Positions 10,234 through 53,947 of a stretch of 64,000 nucleotides of DNA are shown here, piece after piece. The position numbers and the translations under genes were made by a program. The stretch lies in the NCBI RefSeq assembly GCF_003334785.1, contig NZ_QOWV01000011.1; one strand, given 5' to 3'. The notes below the pieces were generated by a model that was not told the DNA's origin, made no database searches, and saw only the letters and a program-made list of their open reading frames with translations. This DNA comes from Escherichia coli. Its GTDB lineage: Bacteria > Pseudomonadota > Gammaproteobacteria > Enterobacterales > Enterobacteriaceae. The stretch's first letter is position 1; every line of letters starts with the position of its first letter.

Positions 10234-12378
10234 TTAAAGTGCACAGGAGACGCAGCCTTCAATTTCAGTGCCTTCCAGCGCCATCTGACGCAGGCGGATG
10301 TAATAGAGCGTTTTGATACCCTTGCGCCAGGCGTAAATCTGCGCTTTGTTGATATCGCGAGTGGTGGCGGTATCGGGGAAAAAAAGCGTCAGCGACAGCC
10401 CCTGATCGACATGGCGAGTCGCTTCCGCGTAGGTGTCGATGATCTTTTCTGCGCCAATTTCGTAAGCGTCCTGATACAGCGCCAGATTCTCGTTAGTCAT
10501 AAACGGGGCAGGGTAGTAAACGCGTCCTGTTTTGCCCTCTTTGCGTATCTCTACTTTCGCCACAATCGGATGAATACTCGACGTAGCATGGTTGATATAA
10601 GAGATAGAACCGGTTGGCGGCACCGCCTGAAGATTCTGGTTGTATATGCCGTAGCGCATCACGTCGTCGCGCAGCTGCGCCCACATCTCACGGGTAGGTA
10701 ACGTAATACCGCTACGGGTAAACAGTTCGCCAACTTTCGCCGTTTTCGGCTGCCAGTTCCCTTGCAGATATTGGCTAAAATATTCACCACTGGCATAGCG
10801 TGACTGTTTGAACCCGGCGAAGGTTTCACCGCGTTCGCGTGCCAGCAACATCGAGGTACGCAGTGCATGCCAGGTGATGGCATAGAAATAGAGATTGGTG
10901 AAATCCAGTGCTTCCGGCGAACCATAAGCGATGCCTTCTCGCGCCAGATAGCCGTGTAAATTCATCTGCCCCAGTCCGATGGCGTGCGAGGCGGCATTTC
11001 CGGCTTCGATGGACGGCACGCTGCGGATATGACTCATATCTGATACTGCCGTTAAACCGCGCACGGCAGTCTCTACCGTGCGGGCAAAATCGGGGGAATC
11101 CATGGTGTGCGCAATATTCAACGAACCTAAATTGCAGGAAATATCATGGCCTGTGCGGGTATAGTCGAGATTCTCGTCATACTCTGAGGCGCTGTTAACC
11201 TGCAAAATTTCTGAGCAGAGATTACTCATATTTATGCGCCCGGCGATAGGGTTAGCACGGTTTACCGTGTCTTCATACATGATGTAGGGATAGCCGGACT
11301 CAAACTGGATTTCTGCCAGTCGCTGGAAGAAATCACGGGCGTTGAGGTATTTTTTGCGAATGCGTTCATCGGCAACCAGTTCGTCATAGTGTTGGCTGAT
11401 GGCCACATCGGCAAACGGCTTGCCATAAACTCGCTCTACGTCATAAGGCGAAAACAGCGCCATCTGCGCATTCTCTTTTGCCAGATGGAAAGTGATATCC
11501 GGGATCACCACGCCAAGCGACAGTGTTTTAATGCGGATTTTTTCGTCGGCATTTTCCCGTTTCGTGTCGAGAAAACGCAGAATATCGGGATGATGAGCAT
11601 GTAAATAGACTGCACCAGCCCCCTGACGAGCGCCGAGTTGGTTGGCATAGGAAAATGCGTCTTCCAGCATTTTCATCACCGGAATTACGCCAGAAGATTG
11701 ATTTTCAATACGTTTAATTGGCGCGCCCGCTTCTCGCAGATTCGACAGCAAAAATGCTACGCCGCCGCCGCGTTTCGACAGCTGCAGTGCGGAATTTACC
11801 GCCCGACCAATCGACTCCATATTGTCTTCAATACGCAGCAAAAAACAGGAAACCAGTTCGCCGCGCTGCTGCTTACCGCAGTTGAGGAATGTTGGCGTGG
11901 CTGGCTGAAAGCGTCCTGACAGCATTTCATCGGTCAGTTGCAACGCCAGCGTCTCATCGCCTTGTGCCAGCGTCAGCGCCACCATCGTTACTCGATCGGC
12001 AAAATCTTCCAGATAACGTTTACCGTCGAATGTCTTCAACGTATAGCTGGTGTAAAACTTCCATGCCCCGAGGAATGTCTGGAAACGAAAACCGCTGGTG
12101 TGTGCGTGGGCAAACAGCGTAATGACAAAGTCGCGAGAGTAGCGATTAAGAACGCTTTCATCATAGTAACCTTCGTTGACCAGCCAGTTCAGGCGCTGCT
12201 GCTGGCTACTGAAGGTCACACTGTTCGGACGCACATGCGTCGCAATAAAGGCGTCAACGGCCTGGCGGTCTTTATCGAACTGAATGCGACCTGCGCTATC
12301 GTAGAGGTTAAGCATCGCATTCAGCGCGTGGTAATCCATCGTTTCCTGCGTCAGGCATTCTGCGGTTGTCGTTGCCAA
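10234..12378 (-). CDS. nrdE: Class Ib ribonucleotide reductase alpha subunit NrdE
   Basis: 714-aa ORF; RNR alpha features (C-terminal CVSCAL); synteny nrdHIEF. Confidence 0.94.
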
Positions 12379-12761
12379 AATTCGGTTACTCCTTTACGAA
12401 CGTTTTCGATATCGCTTTGCGTACCCATGAGTTCAAAACGGTACAGCCACGGCACGCCGCATTTCCGGGCAATCACATCTCCGGCGCGGCCATACGCCTC
12501 ACCAAAGTTGCGATTACCAGAAGCAATAACGCCGCGAAGCAACGCCCGGTTGTGCTCGTCGTTTAAAAAGCGAATTACCTGTCGTGGCACCGCGCCAGCC
12601 GTACCGCCGCCGCCGTAAGAGGGCACGATCAGGATGTAAGGCTCGTCTACCTGAATCCGTTCCCGCTCATTGAGCGGGATGCGCACCGCGGGCAGACCTA
12701 AACGTTCGATAAAACGCTGCGTGTTTTCGGAGCTGCTGGAGAAGTAGACGAGCTGGCTCAT
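12351..12761 (-). CDS. nrdI: Flavodoxin-like NrdI
   Basis: 136-aa [24 protein letters not shown]...; overlaps nrdE start and nrdH stop. Confidence 0.93.
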
Positions 12762-13003
12762 GCACTGGCCGCGTGTGGCGCTGGATGCAGACGGTTAATC
12801 ATGTCCGGACGGAAACCAGACCAGCTAAGATCGCCAGCAATCACTACCGGCAACTGACGAAAGCCCTGAGCACGCAACGCTTCTGCCGCTTCAGGAACGC
12901 GATCGACATTAATCATTTCAAAATCAAAGCCCCGGTTTTCCATCGCCCGTTTGGTGGCGTGGCACTGAACGCAATCGTTACGAGTGTAAATAGTAATGCG
13001 CAT
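12758..13003 (-). CDS. nrdH: Glutaredoxin-like protein NrdH
   Basis: 81-aa [29 protein letters not shown] with CVQC redox motif. Confidence 0.93.
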
Positions 13004-13190
13004 GATTCGTATTTCCGTTTAAAATGAAGATACGGCGCGATGATACGCGTCGGGTTGTCTCTCTGTTGATACAGAGATACTAGATGTAGTTGAAAAAAGA
13101 TTCAACCACACAATATATAGCAAATAGTGGTCGAAATTACCCTGGATATGAGCGTGACGGGGTAGGGGGATTTTTGTGATTCACCAGGCA

Positions 13191-13220
13191 AAAAGAAACC
13201 CCGAAGACAGGCTTCGGGGT
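13191..13220 (-). terminator. Rho-independent terminator downstream of ygaM
   Basis: Hairpin ccccgaag/cttcgggg (5-nt loop) followed on the minus strand by a T-run (A-run 13191-13199 on plus strand), just 3' of the ygaM stop. Confidence 0.7.
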
Positions 13221-13250
13221 CAAAGACGCGTATTTATTATCATTTTTGCA

Positions 13251-13580
13251 CTACGATTTGCGCATGCTTAACAGTGCGCCGATAAAAATACCTACCGCAG
13301 CTGCTGTACCCACGCTACACCAGGGTCTTTCACGAACAAAAGAATCCGCGCAGCCAACGGCATCGCGCGCGGCTTGCTGGACGCGAGTACGACCATGCAT
13401 TCGCGCCCTGGTTTCTTTCAGCAATGCCTGAGCTTTACTGCGTGCGGCTTCAGCTTCCCCTTTGGCGTCGCTGCCCCAGGACTTCAATACAGATTCGAGG
13501 CTGTCAGCTAATTGATTGACATCATTCTGGATATCCTGCACGCCATCATCAACGTCGTTGCGGTTCGGTCGGTTAAACAT
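13251..13580 (-). CDS. ygaM: Ribosome-associated membrane-anchored protein YgaM (ElaB family, DUF883)
   Basis: ORF track 13251..13592; start taken at MFNRPNRNDVDDGVQD (109 aa); C-terminal TM helix. Confidence 0.85.
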   Translation of the reverse strand: MFNRPNRNDVDDGVQDIQNDVNQLADSLESVLKSWGSDAKGEAEAARSKAQALLKETRARMHGRTRVQQAARDAVGCADSFVRERPWCSVGTAAAVGIFIGALLSMRKS

Positions 13581-13731
13581 ATGATCCCCCATTAGAATTC
13601 GATGTAATTTTCAGTGTAGACCATAATTTTCTTAACTGAGGTTCATCGCGGCTTTATGGACTTTTCTGAAAGCGTTGTGAATGCGCAATCAGGTAAGGTA
13701 GGCCCGCGGTTGATAATAACGAGGATCAAAT

Positions 13732-14076
13732 ATGTATTTACGACCAGACGAGGTGGCGCGCGTACTTGAAAAAGTCGGTTTTACTGTCGATGTGGTAACC
13801 CAGAAAGCGTATGGTTACCGCCGTGGGGAAAATTATGTCTATGTTAATCGCGAAGCGCGAATGGGACGTACCGCTCTGGTAATTCATCCAACATTAAAAG
13901 AACGCAGTTCGACACTGGCTGAACCCGCTTCTGATATTAAAACTTGCGATCATTACCAGCAATTTCCGCTCTATTTAGCAGGCGAGCGACACGAGCATTA
14001 CGGTATCCCGCATGGCTTTAGTTCGCGTGTTGCGCTTGAACGTTATTTGAATGGTTTATTTGGCGAAGCCAGTTAA
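13732..14076 (+). CDS. ygaC: Uncharacterized protein YgaC (DUF2002)
   Basis: 114-aa [27 protein letters not shown]...; synteny between ygaM and alaE. Confidence 0.88.
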
Positions 14077-14112
14077 AGACGCGACTGGCGATGCCAGTCG
14101 CGAAAAGAAGAG

Positions 14113-14562
14113 TCAGGCTTTTACCTGCTGGTAACGGCTGACTTTAAACAGTCGGCGGCAATAATCGAGGAAGTAGCCATAAACCGCCCCCATCAACATC
14201 GAAACAACGATGTTTGAACTGACCGCCGCCATAATCTGATGCCAGTCTGCGCCCACCACTAACAAGATCGCCACATACACCGGTGACTGGAACGTCACAT
14301 AAGCCAGGATATCCGCCAGATTTTTTATCCAGCCCGACGGGCTAACTTTGCGTGCCGCGCGCATAAACAGATCACGGTACATACCGTATGGCCATGCAAT
14401 TAAGATGTTCACCGGAATCGCTACCAATCTGGAATAAAAAGACTGTTCGAAGCTCATTCCGGAGAGGAAAACTTCAATACACATGTTCACGACAGAACAG
14501 TAAACAACCATCGCGAACGTATCTGCAACTGCATGACGCAAGCGTGACTGCGGTGAGAACAT
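14113..14562 (-). CDS. alaE: L-alanine exporter AlaE (YgaW)
   Basis: 149-aa membrane ORF; position adjacent to stpA. Confidence 0.88.
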
Positions 14563-15230
14563 GCTAATGCTCCTTAATAAAAGCGTAATGGGATGTTAAT
14601 GGAGATGAAAGCAGTGGATCTCATTGCCATCTGCATTTTCGCATAGCGTATATCGCTGGCTATGACTAATCAATTAGTGAAAAATTTTTATTTAGTCAGT
14701 TTTTGTAGATAAAATATTCCGTAACGGCTCGTTTTTTGTACATTGTGGATTTTTACATGCCGATATGATTTATTTTTAATTAAATCAATTAGATATGGCC
14801 TTACCTTTAATATCACTAATGAAAGTTTGGGGGTGAGGTAACGCTATAAGCGTAGAGAATTCGGTGTATGTAGTAGCTGGGTCATTTTCAGCATTTTTTA
14901 TGCCAGACAATGTACATTAACAGCAGAAAGCACCAGTGATGGATGTTTTCTTTTATTCTGTTATATTGCATTTTTATTCACTTTGATTTTGTCAGGCTTG
15001 CGGAATTAGCGAGCAGAGAGCGCCGCTCTGTTCACCAATAATCTAAATTACTCATCAAAATGGCTAATATATAATCTTGAAATTATTCTGAGAGTTTCAG
15101 AAAATAACAGCTGAAATAATCTCGCGCAGGACTGTAAATAGATTAAATTTTGTGGAAATATAATAAGTGATCGCTTACACTACGCGACGAAATACTTTTT
15201 TTGTTTTGGCGTTAAAAGGTTTTCTTTATT

Positions 15231-15635
15231 ATGTCCGTAATGTTACAAAGTTTAAATAACATTCGCACCCTCCGTGCGATGGCTCGCGAATTCTCCATTG
15301 ACGTTCTTGAAGAAATGCTCGAAAAATTCAGGGTTGTCACTAAAGAAAGACGTGAAGAAGAAGAACAGCAGCAGCGTGAACTGGCAGAGCGCCAGGAAAA
15401 AATTAGCACCTGGCTGGAGCTGATGAAAGCTGACGGAATTAACCCGGAAGAGTTATTGGGTAATAGCTCTGCTGCTGCACCACGCGCTGGTAAAAAACGC
15501 CAGCCGCGTCCGGCGAAATATAAATTCACCGATGTTAACGGTGAAACTAAAACCTGGACCGGTCAGGGCCGTACACCGAAGCCAATTGCTCAGGCGCTGG
15601 CAGAAGGTAAATCTCTCGACGATTTCCTGATCTAA
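15231..15635 (+). CDS. stpA: H-NS paralogue, DNA-binding protein StpA
   Basis: 134-aa [36 protein letters not shown]...; preceded by a ~670-bp AT-rich regulatory region. Confidence 0.94.
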
Positions 15636-45036: not shown

Positions 45037-47142
45037 ATGTTACGAAAAAGCAAACTTACAGAGATATATAAAAGGTTTGGTTTTACTGAAGAAAATACAG
45101 GTAACGAAAGTATTGCTGTATATTCTATTAAAACAGGGCACTACCATAACGCGGACATACTTCCACTAAATAATGAGGTTAATGTAAATCAAACCTTTGA
45201 AGAATATAGGCAGTTAGGTTATGCATGTCAAATTAAAAAATATCAGTCTTATGAAGAAGCACATAAGGAATTATTTAATGGCTTCTTTAGCGTCGATTCA
45301 ACTAAAGAAAGGTTGATTAAAGATTATAATACTTTCACAGATTCAATTGTAAAAATTCACTCACCTACTGCAACTTATTCCTACATAAATTCAAAATATT
45401 ACTTAAATGGTGTTATTGGCGAAGCTAATGTTGTTACGGAAATATTAGAGAGAATACAACATAGGCGTCCAATTCTGTTTTTGATTGAGGCTGCAGCCGG
45501 TTTTGGAAAGACTTGCACGGCGTATGAATTATTGAGGGAGATTATAGTTAACAATATAGGGAAAATACCATTATTTTCAGAACTATCAAGGAATAGGCAA
45601 GCAAAAATATTCAGGTATGTACTATTAGATGAAATTGATAGAAGTTTTCCTTTGTTAAGCTCAGCCTTAGTAAGGAATGAAATAAGAGCAGGAAATGTAC
45701 CAGTTATACTTGACGGGTTTGATGAACTATTGCATGAAAGTACAAACGGAATTGAAAATAATTATGAAAAAACAGAGCCAATGCTGGAAACAATAAGTGA
45801 GCTTCTAACTGATAGTGCAAAAGTGGTTTTGACAACTCGAAGAACAGCTATATTTGACGGAGATGAATTCCATCAGTGGATAGCATCACATCAAGAAGAT
45901 TTTGATGTGATAAGAATAAGAATTCATGAACCACAAATTGAAGACTGGCTTCCAGGTCAACGTTTAGATGAAATTTCATCGACAGGATTTCCTCTTAACA
46001 AATTATCAAACCCTGTACTGCTATCATTTCTAAGATGCATCGACGACACCGACTTTAATAAAGTTATAAGCGACCCAACAACTATAGTGAGGAAGTATTT
46101 TGATTCAATGCTTGAGCGAGAAAGAAAAAGACAAGATTTATTAATGTCTATTGAAGATCAATATACTATACTAAAAATAATAGCTGACGACATGGTCGAG
46201 GGTAACTACACATCTGAGTCTAGAGAGTATATATCGTTAGTCATAACTGAAAAGAATCAACAACTCTTGGAGGCTACAAGAAAGCTTTATACTGTAGATG
46301 AAAGACCAACTACTGACGAATTAGTTAATAAATTAGCATCGCATGCTCTATTAGATCGGTCAGGCTCAGAAAACCAAGGTATTGGATTTGTTAATGAATT
46401 TGTTCTTGGTAATTTTGTTTCTGAAAATATTATTAATGATAAGTCAAATGAATGGATTGGTGATAAACGTTTTATAGAACCAGCAGTGCAATCTTATATG
46501 CCGAGGATCGATGATGAAAAAGAATTACTTTGGCATAGCTTAGAGTTTGCTTTATATTTTATGTCAGGTAATGATAAAATCCTTTATAGTCATTTGCTTA
46601 TAGGAAAAGTTCCATTAGATTTAAAAAATGATAGTGTTGAGCAATTGTCTATATCAAAACTTTCTTTAGGCGATATAAATATAATACATGATACTATCTT
46701 TGTTGATTGTTCGTTTTTTAGCAGCATATTTACCTGTGGTAATTATAAAAACGTTACATTCGTGAACTGTTCTTTTATAGATTGTAGTTTTAACGAATTA
46801 AGTGGTAGGGAAGATATTTATTTTTTGGGATGTGAATGTGACAATGATGCTATTAATAAAAAATCTGTCGAGATAAACAGTGAAAATGATCACGATATTA
46901 CAGATTGTGATATTTACATCTTAGAGAAGTTCTGTCCCAGAGGGAGTGTTAGCTATCATAAGCATCGGCCTATAAAAGGCTTATGTTCTAACAACAATCA
47001 ATTTCAGTTAAGTGAAATACTCCATTCTTTAGATAAATTGAGGAAAGACGGTCTTTTACTTACGCCAGACAAGCGTTCGTTCCTTGAACTTAACATGGCA
47101 AGAATATCAGAGATTAAAGCAATTCTTGGGAGGAATTTCTGA
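45037..47142 (+). CDS. STAND/NACHT-type P-loop NTPase with C-terminal pentapeptide-like repeats (candidate sensor)
   Basis: ORF track 45028..47142; start at ATG 45037 with AGGAGG RBS 45024-45029. Walker A AAAGFGKT, Walker B hhhhDGFDE (VPVILDGFDELL), sensor-like VVLTTRRT; C-terminal FVDCSF...FVNCSF...FIDCSF five-residue periodicity. Confidence 0.8.
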   Translation: MLRKSKLTEIYKRFGFTEENTGNESIAVYSIKTGHYHNADILPLNNEVNVNQTFEEYRQLGYACQIKKYQSYEEAHKELFNGFFSVDSTKERLIKDYNTFTDSIVKIHSPTATYSYINSKYYLNGVIGEANVVTEILERIQHRRPILFLIEAAAGFGKTCTAYELLREIIVNNIGKIPLFSELSRNRQAKIFRYVLLDEIDRSFPLLSSALVRNEIRAGNVPVILDGFDELLHESTNGIENNYEKTEPMLETISELLTDSAKVVLTTRRTAIFDGDEFHQWIASHQEDFDVIRIRIHEPQIEDWLPGQRLDEISSTGFPLNKLSNPVLLSFLRCIDDTDFNKVISDPTTIVRKYFDSMLERERKRQDLLMSIEDQYTILKIIADDMVEGNYTSESREYISLVITEKNQQLLEATRKLYTVDERPTTDELVNKLASHALLDRSGSENQGIGFVNEFVLGNFVSENIINDKSNEWIGDKRFIEPAVQSYMPRIDDEKELLWHSLEFALYFMSGNDKILYSHLLIGKVPLDLKNDSVEQLSISKLSLGDINIIHDTIFVDCSFFSSIFTCGNYKNVTFVNCSFIDCSFNELSGREDIYFLGCECDNDAINKKSVEINSENDHDITDCDIYILEKFCPRGSVSYHKHRPIKGLCSNNNQFQLSEILHSLDKLRKDGLLLTPDKRSFLELNMARISEIKAILGRNF

Positions 47143-48047
47143 TGTATAACGGGAATGAATTGCGAATTATTCAAAGTTTGCAAAAAGATATAGAAGATGA
47201 ACTTAATCGTATTGGATTACTTTATCGTTTTTTTTCGAGGACAAAATCAGAAAGCTCAATAATTAAGAAATATGAAAAAGAGCCTAATAAATACTCAGAG
47301 GATGGTAAAAAAATTCAAGACTTATTTGGGGTTAGGATAATATTATATTTTCCTGATGATTTATTTATTGCTCAAAAAACACTGGAGAAATTATTCGAAA
47401 TTGAATCTAAAACCGTAGACGAAACCACGGCTAATCTCTTTGCGGCAACTCGATGCAATTACGTCTTTAAGTTACCAGAAGTATTATCAAATGATAGTGT
47501 CTTATTAAAGAAATATTCTTATATTGATACTACTTTTGAAGTCCAATTTAGAACTATTTTATCTGAAGGATGGCATGAAGTTGAGCATGATCTACGCTAT
47601 AAGTGCAAAGAGGATTGGGTTGAGCATAATGACCTTAGTCGCGCGCTGAATGGAATTTACGCCTCTTTGGAAACATCTGATTGGGGAATAATGAAGTTAT
47701 TTGAGGATTTAGCATATAGAAATTATAAGTCAAGCGCATGGTCCGCTATGCTAAGAAATAAATTAAGATTGAGAATGGACGATAAGCTTGATGAAAAGAT
47801 AATTTCAATAATTAATGAGAAAGAGCTTGGTAAAAAGTTTTATAGAATTGACAGAGATCGTTTGTTATCGTTAATGTTAGATTATAATATTGATATACCA
47901 ATTAATCTTAATAATATAATTTACCTTTGTAATTATTTTTTCATAAAATCTACGGAGCTTCAGGATATAGCCCCTGCTTTAATAATGAAAAAGCTTACAG
48001 ATGCTGATGAAAAATTCAATAAAAATACTATTTTAGCATCTAAATAA
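47142..48047 (+). CDS. RelA/SpoT-homologue (small alarmone synthetase / toxSAS-like) nucleotide pyrophosphokinase (candidate effector)
   Basis: 301-aa ORF; start ATG overlaps the upstream TGA (tgATGa); GGGAGG RBS. Synthetase motifs: RTKSESSIIKKYEK (Syn1-like), DLFGVRIIL (DxxGxR), EVQFRTILSEGWHEVEHDLRYK (ExQxRT...W.E..H...YK). Confidence 0.8.
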   Translation: MYNGNELRIIQSLQKDIEDELNRIGLLYRFFSRTKSESSIIKKYEKEPNKYSEDGKKIQDLFGVRIILYFPDDLFIAQKTLEKLFEIESKTVDETTANLFAATRCNYVFKLPEVLSNDSVLLKKYSYIDTTFEVQFRTILSEGWHEVEHDLRYKCKEDWVEHNDLSRALNGIYASLETSDWGIMKLFEDLAYRNYKSSAWSAMLRNKLRLRMDDKLDEKIISIINEKELGKKFYRIDRDRLLSLMLDYNIDIPINLNNIIYLCNYFFIKSTELQDIAPALIMKKLTDADEKFNKNTILASK

Positions 48048-48103: not shown

Positions 48104-49099
48104 ATTATGTGAAGTGATGATGATAGCAAATCTGCTATCTTTATGGTTGGATGCGAGAAAATATTTTTATCCCGACACAACAACTGGTAATGATAGAAAA
48201 TTTAAACCCAAAAATGCTACAGTAGCCTCAGCTCACAAACGGAGTATAAAGTGGCGGTTACTCTTTAGTGGGAATACTGTAGATAGTTGATAAACTGGGC
48301 TGGATTTTCTTTTCTAACCGAAGGGAAGAAAAGCAAGGGGAACCCAAAGAAACAAGCGCAGCGGCTTCGTAGGGTTAGCCCTTGCTTCTTTTATAATTGG
48401 CATTATTCATTCAAGAACAATAGGATCTTCGCTTGTACAAGCGAAGCTATAATAAAAAATCAATTAATTATTTTAAAAGTATTAAGCAAGAGCCTATTGA
48501 CATTCGTAAAATAAAAGTTATTTTTAATGTATGCCATAAATAAAAAGTTTTATGTCATATGTATCCTGCACTATGTGCAGTTAATGTGCCACTTGTCCCA
48601 TATATGGGAATATTGGAAAGGTTACTTTGTTTTGAAGTAGCCTTTCGTCCTTCAATATTCACGATTACTTATTGCTATTACCAAGTCCAGTCGAATCGAA
48701 GAACATCTTTTATCTGAAACGACTCCTAATACCAGGTTGAAGCCACAATATCTCTCGCATAAGTAGACCAAAGAAAAATTATGATATTAACTATGTGATT
48801 TTTTTTAGTGTTAAGTTGAATAATTATATACTGGAGAGTTTTCTGTACACTACCAATTGCTGGTTCATCTGTTCTGCCGCTGATGTTTCTGACTAATCTC
48901 CCGGTGACACAGAACTGTCCCTCTCTACCAGCCTTTATTCGACTCAATGTCCGGCTGCTGATACGCAGTTATCCCTTCGTATCAATGACTGACTCTTAAA
49001 CGCAATGCTTTGGTTGCTGGCGTATCTGACAGCTTCTTCGGCGTGAAGGTCGTTGTGTAAGTATACTTCTTGGTTTATTTAGGCTATATAAAACCATGA

Positions 49100-49996
49100 C
49101 TATGACTGGCTGTTTTCAGTAAGAGTCTTATCATCCAAAGAATTTATTCTAGAAATTCTTTTTAACTCATTAAGATAATCAACCTCGTTTTCTAAGAACC
49201 AATGAAGAACTTTAGAGTTGCCAAGTAATTTATTAATATATGACTGGATTATAACGAATTTCAACATATCTGAACCATACTCGGTTTGAAGTTTTTTCGT
49301 TTCTTCCGAAGTTGTTGCCATTTCTTGTTCCAGACGAAGTATGGTTTTTTTTATGTCCTTTTTATAGGGAGTGTTTTTCCCTTTATTTACTATCATCGAT
49401 GACGGTGTTGCATCCAAGATGCTCATTGCAAATTTTTTACTATAATTATCAAAATTAATCATTGTACCGACTGCTTCAATTTGACGAATTGGCTTCATTT
49501 TCCTCAAAACGTCAAATGTAGCCTTAGGTATAGGTTTATCAGAAAGTTTCGCAATTACACTTGGATCTATGCCGTTCATCACATTAGCTTTATCTTTTAT
49601 GGCATCAACAGATATGCCCAAAGCAGCACTAAGTTTTTCAATTGATACTTTTGCCAGAGACTTAATTATCATTCTATGTTCTTCAACTACATTTATATGA
49701 TTCACTTGTTTGTTAGGAGTGAAAGCATCATCTATGCTCGAAAGTATACATGGAGCTTTTTCTATATCTAAGTCTTTTAAAGCCTCAACCCTTAAATGGC
49801 CATCAAGTATCTTAGTGACATCTTTATCTTTGTCATAGAATACTATTATTGGTTCAATAATACCCAAGCTTTCGATAGAGGTAACTATTTGATGATATTT
49901 ATGGCTTCGCTTTACGTTTTCTAATAATTCCTTAGATGGAATTAACTTATTAGTTTCCAGGTAAATAAAATTTTTGCCAAAACGTATCTGAATCAT
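49100..49996 (-). CDS. ParB/Srx-domain protein 2 (ParB-like DNA-binding/nuclease fold)
   Basis: 298-aa ORF with ILDGHLRVEAL motif (ParB-box-like DGxxR) and HTH-like LSAALGISVDAIK; start overlaps stop of upstream paralogue (ATGA). Confidence 0.65.
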   Translation of the reverse strand: MIQIRFGKNFIYLETNKLIPSKELLENVKRSHKYHQIVTSIESLGIIEPIIVFYDKDKDVTKILDGHLRVEALKDLDIEKAPCILSSIDDAFTPNKQVNHINVVEEHRMIIKSLAKVSIEKLSAALGISVDAIKDKANVMNGIDPSVIAKLSDKPIPKATFDVLRKMKPIRQIEAVGTMINFDNYSKKFAMSILDATPSSMIVNKGKNTPYKKDIKKTILRLEQEMATTSEETKKLQTEYGSDMLKFVIIQSYINKLLGNSKVLHWFLENEVDYLNELKRISRINSLDDKTLTENSQS

Positions 49997-50889
49997 TTTG
50001 ATACCTCTTTGTTTACTGGGTTTAATATCTGAGATGGTAGTTCTGAAAGATTCTCTTGTTCAAGTATATTTTGAAAGCTTTTATTCATCATTATGATGTT
50101 AAAAATCTCATTTATTATTAGTAGATTGGTTTTTATAAATTTCGAGTTGTTATAAACAGATTTATGTTCAGCGATACTATTTTCATAAAGCTCAATCAAC
50201 TCCTCTGCAGTCATCCTTTTTGATGGTTTGTGATAATAAAATCCGGCTGCTTTTGCACCTTTATTCCCAACTGTTCTTTGATTTAGAATGTATTTTATCT
50301 TTATAATGTCCCGACTTTTTATTAATTTTTTATCATATGCTTCGGTAAGAATATCTTGTGCTTCCTCAGTTTCACATCTTGCAAATTGCACTGCGAGATA
50401 CAGAGGCAAATTACCCCGTTCGACTGCTGAGAGAAGTTTATGCTCTCCCTTATCAAGAAGCATATTAATACTGCTCACCCAGTTCGATGAATATCCAGTA
50501 ATCTCACTTATTTCGGAGTCTGAAAGTCCTCTGATTTTCATGTCTTTAATCACCTGTAATAACTCATTAGAACGTGGTCTTCTCCTTGCAATGTTTTCAA
50601 CTAAACTCATAACGTAAGCATCTTCTTCTGATACATCTCTTATAATTGCTGGAATAATAGTTTCACCTAATGCAACAAGAGCCTCTATTCTCCCTTGACC
50701 ACAAATTAAAGCATATTTGAAATCGTCTTCATCAATAGCTCTTACGCTTATAGGCTTGCTTAATCCTCTTTTTTTTATGCTTTCCTTTATTTCTTCATGC
50801 ACTACCTTATTTCTTGTTCGTGGGTTAAGAAATTTTATTTTTGCAATCTCAATTTGAATTATTGGGAATTCATTTTTTTCAGGCAGCAT
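49993..50889 (-). CDS. ParB/Srx-domain protein 1
   Basis: 298-aa ORF with LICGQGRIEAL motif and ...LVENIARRRP...; overlaps serine recombinase stop by 11 nt. Confidence 0.65.
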   Translation of the reverse strand: MLPEKNEFPIIQIEIAKIKFLNPRTRNKVVHEEIKESIKKRGLSKPISVRAIDEDDFKYALICGQGRIEALVALGETIIPAIIRDVSEEDAYVMSLVENIARRRPRSNELLQVIKDMKIRGLSDSEISEITGYSSNWVSSINMLLDKGEHKLLSAVERGNLPLYLAVQFARCETEEAQDILTEAYDKKLIKSRDIIKIKYILNQRTVGNKGAKAAGFYYHKPSKRMTAEELIELYENSIAEHKSVYNNSKFIKTNLLIINEIFNIIMMNKSFQNILEQENLSELPSQILNPVNKEVSK

Positions 50890-52435
50890 ATAGTTCCCTC
50901 ACTTTCATGCGAGTAATAATTTGTAGAAATTTATCAAGATTATCAAATCTATAGAGATCTAACCGAATGTTGTTTGTTTCCATCATACACATTTTACTAT
51001 ATTCGTTTTCAATCTTTGGTATGATATAAAAATCAAGAGGTGAAATATTTTGTGAATTCATTCGTATAACAATTGTTATGTCTGCTTTCTGTGAGTTATC
51101 AAACCGGACTTTCCATCTAAGTTTACCTGATTTCATATGTATGCATTTAGTAACAAGGACGGAAATTAAAAACTCATCATTGATGTAAAGCATTGGGTAA
51201 TATTTATACTCGTCTATATGACAGTTACTTTTTAATATTTCGCCCTTAAAATCCTCAATTATCTCTGAGTAAAATGATCTTAGTGCTTCATTTATTTGGA
51301 GATAGCTGTAATCATGTTCTGGCTTATAACCAATCAAAGTATATGCTCTTAAAAGACCACCAAATCGGGTTCTATAAACAGAAGATGAAGGGCCTGTATC
51401 ATCTTCATCAATGATAAAGCCTGATAGTTTTCCATTAGATTCTAATTTTTCTTTTAGCTTTTCTAATAGATCTTCATTAGTCAAATGAATGGATCGGAGC
51501 TGAATTATTTCTTGAGCTTTATTATATTTTTTCTTTGAAATAATTGGTTTATATGCCTTGTCACATCTAATCCATTCATGTTTGGGGTTTTTTACAAGCT
51601 TACTTTTTAGTTTAGATGAGGTTTTGTTATATATGTTGTTTCCAATATATTTTTCATTTGTCAAAATTTGATGTATTTTTGCACGAGTCCATGATGTTCC
51701 ATTTTCTGCAGGTATGCTCTGTTCATTTAATCTCTCAGCAATAATGAATTCTGGGACGTTACTATCTATAAAGAGATCATAGATTCTATTTACAATTTTT
51801 ATTTCATTTTTTGGTCCCGGAATTAATATTACCCTATCTGTTTGAATACTCTTTCTTTTGCGGAAATTCAATATTTCTTTAGCTATGCCATTTTCGTCTA
51901 CTAAAAGACGTCTCAGCCCATAACCAGCCATACCGCCTTGATGATAACCAAGCTTTATTAAATTTACTTGCCCTATAAATACCTTTTCAGATAGATTCCT
52001 GCTGTGATATGCAGCACTTGATCTTTTTATATTCAGTATAACAGAGGACTCTAAAGGGAAATCTTTAGTGGGTATAGGTTCGGAACAATATATAAGATCT
52101 ACACCATTTCTTTCAAATAGAAAGGAATAATATGCAGCTTCATCACTATTTTGAAAACGACCAAAACGGCTCACATCATAAAATAATACAGCCTGTATAT
52201 CTATTTTCTTTTGTTCTACATCGCTAAGTAACTGCTGCAAAGAATGCCTGCCTACGATACTGACTCCGCTCTTACCTGCATCATCGTAGGTATAAGCGAT
52301 TTCCATATTGTTCTTTTCAGCATAATCTTTGATATATTCAGACTGATTATGTAAAGAATATTGCTGATGGTCGGTAGACATCCTCAAGTACTGTGCGACC
52401 CTAACTCTATGATTTTTTTCATTTCCGCTAGCCAT
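50879..52435 (-). CDS. Large serine recombinase (resolvase/invertase catalytic domain plus recombinase domain)
   Basis: ORF track 50879..52441 (TTG); ATG at 52433-52435 with GAGG RBS. N-terminal YLRMSTDHQ catalytic-serine motif, ~518 aa. Confidence 0.8.
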   Translation of the reverse strand: MASGNEKNHRVRVAQYLRMSTDHQQYSLHNQSEYIKDYAEKNNMEIAYTYDDAGKSGVSIVGRHSLQQLLSDVEQKKIDIQAVLFYDVSRFGRFQNSDEAAYYSFLFERNGVDLIYCSEPIPTKDFPLESSVILNIKRSSAAYHSRNLSEKVFIGQVNLIKLGYHQGGMAGYGLRRLLVDENGIAKEILNFRKRKSIQTDRVILIPGPKNEIKIVNRIYDLFIDSNVPEFIIAERLNEQSIPAENGTSWTRAKIHQILTNEKYIGNNIYNKTSSKLKSKLVKNPKHEWIRCDKAYKPIISKKKYNKAQEIIQLRSIHLTNEDLLEKLKEKLESNGKLSGFIIDEDDTGPSSSVYRTRFGGLLRAYTLIGYKPEHDYSYLQINEALRSFYSEIIEDFKGEILKSNCHIDEYKYYPMLYINDEFLISVLVTKCIHMKSGKLRWKVRFDNSQKADITIVIRMNSQNISPLDFYIIPKIENEYSKMCMMETNNIRLDLYRFDNLDKFLQIITRMKVRELYAA

Positions 52436-52717
52436 GCACAAAACCTCATGGATGATTCAATACAATGTAGAGGATAAAATTGATCAAATTTTAACCGAAT
52501 TCAACTGTTTTATCATTGATTAGAGCGAATTTGGTAGTTCTTCGAGGTGTATGATAATCGAGAAGAGATGTGAATTATTTAGCTGATATGACCGACAGCT
52601 TTCGTTATGTGGCCTCAAGGTACCCATTTGTAAATGGCTATGCTTAGTCCACATAGGTTAATGGTGTGATCATTAATTCTTCAAATAAATCAAGATAGTT
52701 AACCCATCATGGAAGAG

Positions 52718-53947
52718 TTATGCGGCAATAACTTTGTATTTTTGAGACGAAACATAGTCACTCCACCATTGCATGAGAACCACACGTTCTGTGAGATACT
52801 CTGCACGATTGTAGGCTGCAATTATTTCATCTTTTTTCGAGTGGGCAAGGGCGGCTTCTAAGACATCAGTTCTAAACTTGCCACACTCCTCAGCCGCCGT
52901 TCTAGCGATTGATCGCATACCATGAGCTACAAGCTCACCTCCGAAGCCCATACGGATTATAGCCGCATTAGCTGTTTGTTCATGCATGTGATTGAGTGGA
53001 GCTTTGATACTGGGAAAAACCCACTCTCTATGCCCGCTGATGGCTTTCATTGAATCCAAGACTCGCAAAGATTCTTTGCTCAGTGGAACTTTGTGAGGCT
53101 TCTTCATTTTCATAAACTCCGCCGGGATGTTCCACATGCTGGTTTCTATATCAATATCTGACCATCTTGTGCGAACAGCTTCACCAGGGCGAACCCATGT
53201 GAGAAGTTGCCACTCAATCAGTAGCCTTGTTTCTAAACGGATAGAAGCATTGTTTAGAGCAACCAGGAAGCGGGGGAGTTCGGAAGGGGGTAATGCTGGC
53301 ATATTCTGTTTTTTTGGCTTGCTGAACCGTTGCCCCAGGTTGTCAGCCGGATTGAATTCTATGAGTTCTTCTGTTGCTGCATAGCGGAAAATTTCATTCA
53401 GGCGGGATATGACGCGGCGAAGTGTTTCAAGGACACCTCGTTTTTCTATGGGGTCTAAATGCTGTTTAAGCATTTTAGGGCGAATCTCCTTAATGGGGGT
53501 ATCACCCAACGTTGGAAAGATATTTCTCTCTAGGCTTCGCCAGATGTCGTTAGCATGATCCTGGGAGATGCCTGACGTTTTGACTTTCTCATCAAGCCAC
53601 TTCTTGGCTACTGCTTGAAATGTATGTTCCGTTGCATCCTTAAGGGCATTGGCTTTGTGGGTGTTATGAACTTGTGGGTCTATACCATTTGCAAGCAACG
53701 ACAAGTACTCATCACGTAAAGCTCGTGCCTTCGCAAGTGTAAGGTGAGGATAGGTTCCTAAGCTCACCTTAGTTCGCTTTTTGGTCACAGGCACTGCATA
53801 TCTGAAATACCAATTTTTCTTTCCTCCCTTCGCTAAGGGGGCGATTCGCAGGAGCAAACCATCGCCGTCAAAAAGGTTAACCTCTTTCTCGGCAGGTTTG
53901 GTGCTTTTGATTTCAGTGTCAGTGAGCTTCTTAGCGATTTTTGCCAT
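52718..53947 (-). CDS. P4-type tyrosine integrase (phage integrase family)
   Basis: ORF track 52718..54091 runs into the ssrA terminator; start placed at MAKIAKKLTDTEIK (ATG 53945-53947, 409 aa). C-terminal catalytic HxxR (VAHGMRS) and Tyr (AAYNRAEY); adjacent to ssrA. Confidence 0.85.
   Translation of the reverse strand: MAKIAKKLTDTEIKSTKPAEKEVNLFDGDGLLLRIAPLAKGGKKNWYFRYAVPVTKKRTKVSLGTYPHLTLAKARALRDEYLSLLANGIDPQVHNTHKANALKDATEHTFQAVAKKWLDEKVKTSGISQDHANDIWRSLERNIFPTLGDTPIKEIRPKMLKQHLDPIEKRGVLETLRRVISRLNEIFRYAATEELIEFNPADNLGQRFSKPKKQNMPALPPSELPRFLVALNNASIRLETRLLIEWQLLTWVRPGEAVRTRWSDIDIETSMWNIPAEFMKMKKPHKVPLSKESLRVLDSMKAISGHREWVFPSIKAPLNHMHEQTANAAIIRMGFGGELVAHGMRSIARTAAEECGKFRTDVLEAALAHSKKDEIIAAYNRAEYLTERVVLMQWWSDYVSSQKYKVIAA

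Follow-up and report, generated by a model that had tools for sequence, protein, structure and literature searches.

A conserved three-gene cassette of an atypical large serine recombinase and two ParB-type proteins in the ssrA island of Escherichia coli

Introduction

Large serine recombinases (φC31, Bxb1, A118, TP901-1, SprA, CcrA/B of SCCmec and TnpX/TndX) combine a catalytic domain, a long αE helix and a 'Recombinase' domain with a zinc-ribbon and coiled-coil part, which controls synapsis and directionality. A recombinase with the same catalytic domain, αE helix, 'Recombinase' domain and all active-site residues is encoded in the 64,000 nucleotides (nt) of Escherichia coli DNA analyzed here (contig NZ_QOWV01000011.1; this whole stretch is called the window in the following), which represent the chromosome around ssrA-smpB-ratA-bamE-recN. 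It differs from the described enzymes in that the zinc-ribbon and the coiled-coil are replaced and in that its gene is coupled to two genes for ParB-type proteins, named ParB1 and ParB2 in this study. These three genes (the trio; positions 49100 to 52435, minus strand) are a real, strongly conserved and uncharacterised module among the serine-recombinase modules of mobile elements.

The ParB-family clamps with a cytidine triphosphate (CTP) switch, namely ParB/Spo0J, Noc, KorB of RK2 and RepB of the repABC plasmids, have the ParB_N domain, the helix-turn-helix (HTH) and the RepB-type C-terminal region in common with ParB1 and ParB2. The NPR, GxxR and ENxxR boxes of these clamps are kept in ParB1. 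However, the canonical GERRxR is changed to GQGRxE in ParB1 and to GHLRxE in ParB2, and the latter is without the catalytic glutamate. Furthermore, the trio encodes two divergent proteins instead of one, has neither a ParA/KorA-type partner nor a recognisable parS, and is not located at an origin or on plasmids as the clamp genes are.

The parCBA-parDE locus of RK2/RP4 is likewise a three-gene operon headed by a serine recombinase, and some alphaproteobacterial trios lie divergent from a ParDE pair. The ParA of RP4 is a small resolvase, and its ParB is a nuclease unrelated to the ParB/Srx fold. The RK2/RP4 locus is plasmid-borne, whereas the trio is overwhelmingly chromosomal. Compared with the homing endonuclease I-Ssp6803I and the Holliday-junction resolvases Hjc/RecU, the C-terminal domain of the trio recombinase has no sequence-level similarity, carries D-Y-Y for (D/E)xK and is fused to a recombinase.

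The nearest published analogue, likened here by its description, is found in the ssrA islands of Dehalococcoides, where a conserved 'integration module' (DsiB/DsiA) is located on the reverse strand beside ssrA with variable cargo behind it (PMC3146451). In this module a CcrB-like serine recombinase of about 540 amino acids (aa), proposed as the integrase, is located directly at the ssrA repeat. The module further contains a second, small recombinase, one ParBc protein of 210 aa and RecF-, Mom- and polymerase-like genes (PMC3146451). Both modules thus place a serine recombinase and a ParBc-domain gene beside ssrA. In E. coli, however, it is a tyrosine integrase that abuts ssrA, and the module consists of exactly three genes. 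We tentatively regard the trio as a self-contained site-specific recombination module of integrated mobile elements, mostly of small defence-carrying islands and less often of prophages, with a confidence somewhat short of even.

Results and Discussion

Gene Organization

The open reading frame (ORF) of the recombinase extends over 50879-52441 on the minus strand and comprises 520 aa from a TTG codon or 518 aa from the ATG at 52435. The latter is the RefSeq start ('recombinase family protein', 518 aa), and a GAGG is found about 8 nt 5' of it. The gene at 50879..52435 was assigned to an atypical large serine recombinase by ORF, RefSeq, Pfam, structure model and Foldseek. It is followed on the same strand by the genes for ParB1 (49993..50889) and ParB2 (49100..49996), both of 298 aa. 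The recombinase and ParB1 genes overlap by 11 nt (50879-50889) and the ParB1 and ParB2 genes by 4 nt (49993-49996, ATGA), as had been claimed in an earlier note on this DNA. The motifs YLRMSTDHQ, LICGQGRIEAL and ILDGHLRVEAL, which it had listed, were all found in the translations, and its assignment of a serine recombinase agrees with the Pfam matches to Resolvase (PF00239, E 1.4e-21) and Recombinase (PF07508, E 1.1e-21).

The Recombinase

The Resolvase catalytic domain covers residues 16-154 (51974..52390), with Ser20 within YLRMSTDHQ as the nucleophile. The 'Recombinase' domain was located at residues 212-314 (51494..51802) and also matches the N-terminal and recombinase domains (NTD+RD) of integrases structurally. 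Y16, R18, S20, Q24, D87, R90 and R93 are kept in 71 of the 72 recombinases encoded beside ParB genes, and the remaining sequence is gapped at those positions. CcrB/CcrC and the PHROG 'integrase' were the best sequence-family matches. The full protein was modelled with AlphaFold2 (AF2) at a predicted local distance difference test (pLDDT) value of 87, and only the first ~330 residues of the model matched recent cryo-EM structures of large serine integrases, as determined with Foldseek.

The C-terminal region (residues 320-518; 50882..51478) is different. No zinc-ribbon domain was matched with Pfam and no conserved Cys pairs were found in an alignment of 33 sequences. Residues 312-518 were modelled alone with a pLDDT of 90, resulting in a helical module with a weak match to the 'homing endonuclease associated repeat' and a PD-(D/E)XK-fold domain (about residues 405-500) for which I-Ssp6803I was the best match. 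In the predicted structure this domain has the restriction-endonuclease-like alpha/beta core fold, and at the sequence level no similarity to solved structures (PDB), including any solved nuclease, was detected. According to these models, the helical and PD-(D/E)XK module replaces the zinc-ribbon/coiled-coil part of the large serine recombinases, an architecture that to our knowledge has not been described.

Among the 72 trio-linked recombinases, R458, D468 and P473 are conserved in all and P451-D452 in 70. The canonical (D/E)xK lysine is missing, since the motif reads D468-Y-Y, and nuclease activity of the domain is therefore uncertain. The invariant R458 could stand in for this lysine. Three solitary paralogues of the recombinase, encoded without ParB genes, have lost D468 in two cases and R458 in one; in these proteins (loci L005 2275-3846, L011 6792-8477 and L037 14447-16057) the T454/R458/D468 positions are partly lost.

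ParB1 and ParB2

The ParB-like assignments of the two 298-aa proteins, taken from motifs in the earlier note, are backed by profiles, as ParB_N (PF02195) and RepB (PF07506) were identified in both. ParB1 matches ParB_N with E 5e-13 and RepB with E 4e-7, and ParB2, with a divergent ParB_N and a strong RepB domain, matches RepB with E 7e-24 and ParB_N with E 8e-5. TIGR00180 was above its cutoff for ParB1 only and not for ParB2.

Among solved structures, ParB1 is closest to Spo0J/ParB, Noc and KorB. The motifs conserved in its family are LNPRxRN, CGQGR, which replaces GERR, and VENxARR, and judged from these residues ParB1 is compatible with nucleotide binding. In the ParB2 family LLDGHLR, FTYNKRVN and QEHxMI are conserved, and the glutamate of the ParB 'ENxxR' box is replaced. 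The protein keeps DGHLR and YNKR and is therefore without the glutamate used for CTP hydrolysis by canonical ParB.

ParB1 and ParB2 form two separate orthologous lineages. Their designation as paralogues in the earlier note holds for the common architecture but not for a close kinship, since BLASTP gave 30% identity over 63 residues only. They may at most be ancient paralogues. It is conceivable that ParB1 and ParB2 form a heteromeric pair.

A ParB/Srx-fold nucleoside triphosphatase (NTPase) together with a nuclease is known from GmrSD and Dnd/Ssp-type systems. Following this precedent, the trio could be a new anti-phage or anti-plasmid defence system, in which the ParB/Srx proteins would be nucleotide-switched DNA sensors or clamps and the recombinase an effector that cuts foreign DNA via its serine and/or its PD-(D/E)XK-like domain. 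The conservation of P-D452, R458 and D468, which tracks the presence of the ParB genes and is partly lost in the three solitary paralogues, is in line with this. On the other hand, the fully kept recombination active site and the Recombinase domain are hard to explain for a simple nuclease effector, and the canonical lysine is absent from the D468-Y-Y motif. We know of no defence system that uses a serine recombinase. None of the NCBIfam defence models matched the trio, and in PADLOC the recombinase and ParB1 had no match whereas ParB2 matched only the ParB-like N-terminus of a methyltransferase model. Altogether we consider a defence function rather unlikely. It corresponds to the defence-associated module named as an option in the earlier note and is the other of the two leading readings.

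The statement of that note that the trio cannot be assigned to a named system also stands, since nothing was found in PADLOC, NCBIfam or the literature searched, and the trio was absent from the full texts. In a 2026 preprint on anti-plasmid immunity, which was considered and set aside, ParB is only a microscopy reporter.

Conservation and Spread

At E < 1e-30, a search of 1.84 billion cluster representatives revealed 1,351 relatives of the recombinase, most of which have about 520 aa and align over the full length with 33-46% identity. With one genome per GTDB species, 80 loci were obtained from Alpha-, Beta-, Gamma- and Deltaproteobacteria, Bdellovibrio and others. The order recombinase, ParB1, ParB2 was found in 71 of them, usually with overlapping stop and start codons, and the other contigs were truncated or frameshifted. 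The same order was present in 62 of 80 IMG/VR loci. A search anchored on ParB2 identified ParB1 and the recombinase upstream in 49 of the 51 loci with enough upstream DNA. These data indicate that the trio is a single conserved cassette and not a chance cluster. In 38 of the 71 loci a small divergent ORF of about 130 aa, for which no Pfam match was obtained, is located about 70 nt upstream of the recombinase; it is absent in E. coli.

The cassette spreads horizontally as a unit. In Rhodobacterales, about 4 kb are common to different genomes at 90-94% identity within unrelated flanks, with borders at about -480 to +130. On the Agrobacterium plasmid pAtC58 the cassette spans 11515-15389 between an AbiE module and a Fic gene, each of which was found independently on other plasmids. 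An element of 11.9 kb with the trio is 97% identical between a gammaproteobacterial Halothiobacillus metagenome-assembled genome (MAG) and the alphaproteobacterial Pararhodobacter, which is taken as evidence of a very recent inter-class transfer. This element (L016 8417-20282, L039, L045) comprises a ParE-type toxin-antitoxin, the small ORF, the trio and helicase-like genes of 413, 617 and 1,024 aa. An inverted repeat bordering it was discarded, as it is the terminal repeat of IS66.

On the Pseudolabrys contig JARYIJ010000001.1 two divergent trio copies (L022, L027) were found at about 1.88 Mb and 1.94 Mb, i.e., about 60 kb apart and in opposite orientation. They may bracket one large element.

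The trio was present on 67 of 72,556 plasmids, nearly all of them megaplasmids. In E. coli it is chromosomal at all of its 657 places and was never found on a plasmid. A ParA-type Walker adenosine triphosphatase (ATPase) was detected neither in the operon (71 loci) nor among the top 20 Pfam families of the upstream and downstream neighbour censuses described below. Classical ParABS partition was therefore rejected. With this, the partition part of the second integration/partition module considered in the earlier note is dismissed, whereas its integration part is one of the two leading readings.

The occurrence on megaplasmids and chromids, e.g., pAtC58 and plasmids of Sphingobium and Burkholderia, would also fit a stability module of large replicons or excised islands. 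Here the recombinase would resolve multimers at a res-like site and the ParB pair would tether or segregate the DNA via host factors, functionally like parCBA-parDE of RK2/RP4. The RepB partition domain of both ParB proteins, the several alphaproteobacterial trios divergent from a ParDE toxin-antitoxin pair as in RK2, and the clustered inverted TTCTCCGCA motifs upstream of the trio in one lineage agree with such a function. We nevertheless regard it as improbable, because this cluster is not general, no ParA is encoded and multimer resolution is of no benefit to an integrated island. Furthermore, the few plasmids, none of them from E. coli, have to be compared with the 657 chromosomal places.

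Position at Island Edges

In every resolvable case the trio is located at most about 2 kb from an island edge. The layout is ssrA|int|trio in the Enterobacteria (E. coli, Klebsiella and Salmonella), hisGD…|small ORF|trio in Sphingomonas koreensis, tRNA|Fic|small ORF|trio in Rhodobacterales, and conserved backbone|trio|variable region on the pAt plasmids. In Aliiroseovarius it is ParDE|small ORF|trio|Shedu|tRNA-Ser, with no other recombinase there. A tyrosine integrase was found within 10 kb in only about 10 of 71 loci, and the trio recombinase is therefore the sole candidate integrase in most loci.

The neighbours differ between the two sides. Downstream, ORFs within 6 kb of ParB2 in 47 dereplicated loci belong mainly to restriction-modification, TIR/Thoeris, SIR2, AbiE, RES-Xre and helicase families in a Pfam census that had no background control. 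The upstream census gave housekeeping genes, integrases, IS66, HipA and Ku. In a minority of IMG/VR contigs, phage capsid, terminase, tail/tape-measure or gene transfer agent (GTA) baseplate genes directly follow the trio. The edge position, the asymmetry of the neighbours, the small number of tyrosine integrases and the phage genes downstream in some cases argue for a recombination module of element edges.

Some of these observations also fit a defence system. The downstream census contains ResIII, TIR, ThsB, SIR2, methylases of the MmeI, Eco57I and type I families, AbiEii and RES-Xre, and the neighbours include NACHT+RelA/SpoT, RloB/AAA_15, Hxs+DUF6119, Mrr/McrA, Shedu, AbiE and Fic. The trio also occurs in single copy and patchily, in 12% of E. 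coli, and is reshuffled as a tightly bounded cassette. However, the backbone genes of an island would adjoin defence genes as well, and neither the edge position nor the asymmetry between upstream and downstream is expected for a generic cassette.

In several Rhodobacterales (L125, L127, L190) the trio island is bordered by a tRNA gene on one side and by the tail end (megatron/baseplate gene) of an RcGTA-like cluster on the other. Since the end of this cluster adjoins the trio island, IMG/VR calls these regions proviruses. A phage origin or function in general was rejected, as ParB2 gave one weak match in 50,697 phage records.

The ssrA Island of Enterobacteria

The trio was identified in 656 of 5,426 complete E. 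coli genomes (12%, about 1 in 8), including the laboratory strain BL21; MG1655 does not carry it. The ssrA integrase and the trio occur together in 632 of the 703 E. coli genomes carrying this integrase, and the same ssrA-int-trio order was found in Klebsiella and Salmonella. A second E. coli lineage of the trio with 95% identity is located in the argW island.

In the window, a low-GC island (32-45% compared to about 50%) extends from about 24,500 to the 3' end at 54114 of the transfer-messenger RNA (tmRNA) gene ssrA. This gene (54114..54476, minus strand; ARAGORN; Rfam RF00023, 295.8 bits) is the attachment site of the island. The separate tyrosine integrase that the earlier note had placed beside the trio was confirmed as a P4-type enzyme (52718..53947, minus strand; NF007246, 444.6 bits, above cutoff; RefSeq). 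It is this integrase, and not the trio recombinase, that accounts for the integration of the island at ssrA.

The conserved block in E. coli starts some 20 nt beyond the integrase stop codon, at about 52698, and ends at about 49052, 48 nt beyond that of ParB2. Besides the trio it comprises a leader of 263 nt (52436..52698, minus strand), which travels with the trio and whose border was derived from the comparison with relatives carrying the integrase only, and a tail of 48 nt 3' of the ParB2 stop (49052..49099, minus strand), where the homology with the argW-island lineage ends. In the leader, a promoter-like site (52516-52488), detected by promoter scan and sequence inspection, overlaps an imperfect palindrome centred on TTGATCAA (about 52477-52493), which is a candidate operator. 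This palindrome is the only parS-like sequence in the E. coli leader; elsewhere only the TTCTCCGCA cluster of one lineage was found.

An IS3-family remnant (48952..49051; no strand assigned), recognized by matches to IS3/ISKpn34 ends, abuts the cassette. The IS3 is located about 50 nt after ParB2 and is intact in Klebsiella (L100/L101, 12564-13675), while a remnant is left in E. coli and Salmonella. From the identical position in three genera it follows that the insertion predates the spread of the island backbone. IS3 ends are also the starting points of rearrangements, for example in CH468 and SHP24.

The cargo beyond the IS3 differs: NACHT and RelA/SpoT-like genes are present in the window, and in other places there are Hxs and DUF6119, Mrr/McrA-like, UvrA-like/ThiF or HNH genes. 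In a related ssrA element that lacks the trio, the corresponding slot is filled with TIR and Kiwa-like genes, followed by the same relaxase module. That the trio occupies a slot otherwise used for such cargo is a further point in favour of the defence function.

The cassette of about 3.6-4 kb might also be a selfish mini-element that settles in permissive island DNA and owes its movement to its own recombinase, which has a homing-endonuclease-like target domain. Its tight borders (in E. coli 263 nt before the recombinase gene and 48 nt after the ParB2 gene, and those given above for Rhodobacterales and pAtC58), the near-identical cassettes within unrelated flanks, the resemblance of the C-terminal domain to a homing endonuclease and the two divergent copies on one Pseudolabrys contig are compatible with this idea. 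Against it, the trio hardly ever occurs in more than one copy (656 E. coli genomes have 657 places) and is always found at one of two sites in E. coli, beside the same integrase. In addition, terminal repeats are missing: the sole candidate pair (52683-52702 / 48787-48806) was dropped, as Salmonella is collinear beyond it, to 48294. There is thus little to recommend a selfish mini-element.

Search for Recombination Sites

Around the E. coli cassette only AT-rich repeat pairs at chance level were detected, the inverted ones being 70-89% complementary. Iterated 10-mers upstream of the recombinase were in most of the 44 loci examined no better than in shuffled sequences, and no general motif emerged. 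Clustered inverted TTCTCCGCA motifs upstream of the recombinase were restricted to one lineage. In six Rhodobacterales loci (L055, L063, L066, L072, L073, L080), the stretch 550-640 nt upstream of the recombinase, on the far side of the small divergent ORF, contains three to four copies of a ATTCTCCGCA motif in both orientations. This cluster is a possible res- or operator-like site, which is restricted to that lineage.

Copies of the ssrA 3' end as internal att sites were not found within the window, and the far ends of the islands had no tRNA-end direct repeats. The 703 E. coli genomes yielded neither an excised nor an empty-site variant, and look-ups of the exact proteins in Sphingomonas and Aliiroseovarius returned occupied sites only.

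Three further candidates for traces of recombination were rejected. The integrase 3' fragments flanking the trio in CH468 had been regarded as a junction made by the recombinase. The breakpoint coincides with the IS3 end, and this is therefore an IS-associated rearrangement. Contigs of draft genomes that break off about 2 kb before the recombinase had been taken as a sign of recombinational heterogeneity, but a tRNA gene at this position explains the breaks. The 'Lactiplantibacillus plantarum plasmid plas1' (NZ_CP110863.1, L096), a linear record of about 13.5 kb, is not an excised circle. Its GC content of 63-68% and its recombinase of proteobacterial type mark it almost certainly as a contaminant contig among the public plasmid records.

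The inversion switch suggested in the earlier note could be discarded. Flanking inverted repeats above chance are lacking, and the junction between integrase and trio is collinear in 632 E. coli genomes. The recombinase, a large enzyme of 518 aa with a Recombinase domain, is also no small DNA invertase of the Hin/Gin/Pin type, which has about 190 aa and a C-terminal HTH, and the Mpi invertase model reached 24 bits compared to a cutoff of 272.

Several of these results weigh against a site-specific recombination module. These are the chance-level repeats, the missing general motif upstream of the recombinase and the missing excised or empty-site variants in E. coli. Furthermore, the island already carries a tyrosine integrase, and in Enterobacteria the variable cargo starts beyond the shared IS3 and not at the cassette border, so that the turnover of the enterobacterial cargo is not explained by the trio recombinase. 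The borders of the cassette are no tighter than in ordinary defence cassettes and fit the defence function equally well. The provirus borders at the recombinase in IMG/VR may reflect that the software treats it as an integrase. From what is known to us about the directionality factors of large serine recombinases, no ParB-type accessory factor has been described for any serine recombinase.

Proposed Mechanism

For a recombination module, the following mechanism is proposed. The recombinase would be the catalytic engine, acting via Ser20 chemistry in vivo, and would recognise its DNA sites via the homing-endonuclease-like C-terminal module and not via a zinc-ribbon/coiled-coil. Translational coupling would provide ParB1 and ParB2 in a fixed ratio to it. 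ParB1 probably still binds a nucleotide (CTP), with ParB2 as a putative degenerate partner. The pair may bind DNA at or near the module and license, direct or architecturally assist the recombination, be it the integration/excision of the element or its resolution, and may also help to retain an excised circle. In the E. coli island, the tyrosine integrase would perform the insertion at ssrA with the trio as the first cassette behind it. The trio would then either serve the island or be the stranded core of an element that landed there.

Further Features of the Island

The NACHT and RelA/SpoT-like genes of the window (45028-48047, plus strand) encode a 704-aa NACHT protein and, start/stop-coupled to it by an ATGA at 47142, a 301-aa RelA/SpoT-like nucleotide pyrophosphokinase. 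They look like a candidate two-gene defence pair of a STAND sensor and a toxSAS-like effector. PADLOC returned only a weak PDC-S33 match for the second gene, which is split in strain 300709.

A relaxase/mobilisation gene with a small ATP-binding partner is located at 40100-41329 (minus strand) and in its neighbourhood, and in strain 300709 at L001 11071-12722. Because of this relaxase, the ssrA element is an integrative mobilisable element with a variable defence-cargo slot between integrase and relaxase. A tRNA-Met gene (27889-27964, plus strand) lies inside the low-GC region far from the ssrA end and may mark the junction of two accreted islands. In strain 300709 (L001 25382-41482) the island integrase is separated from ssrA by insertions of an anti-phage dCTP deaminase gene and a degraded P2-like prophage, and this arrangement shows tandem accretion at ssrA.

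Conclusion

The recombinase family is large, the trio is present in about one eighth of the E. coli genomes, and no function has been described for it in the literature or the family libraries searched. As a more general idea, to which we assign a rather low probability, the two ParB-family proteins would be nucleotide-switch clamps that, once loaded on DNA, license a hybrid of serine recombinase and homing-endonuclease-like PD-(D/E)XK domain, as a new class of immunity to incoming plasmids or phages or as a clamp-gated recombination that builds and moves defence islands. If the architecture is as modelled, large serine recombinases would exist without the zinc-ribbon/coiled-coil, which is the part central to models of site choice and directionality and to genome-engineering uses. 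The ParB-type CTP switches would gain a new kind of partner. Under any of the readings considered, the trio bears on how defence islands are assembled and moved.

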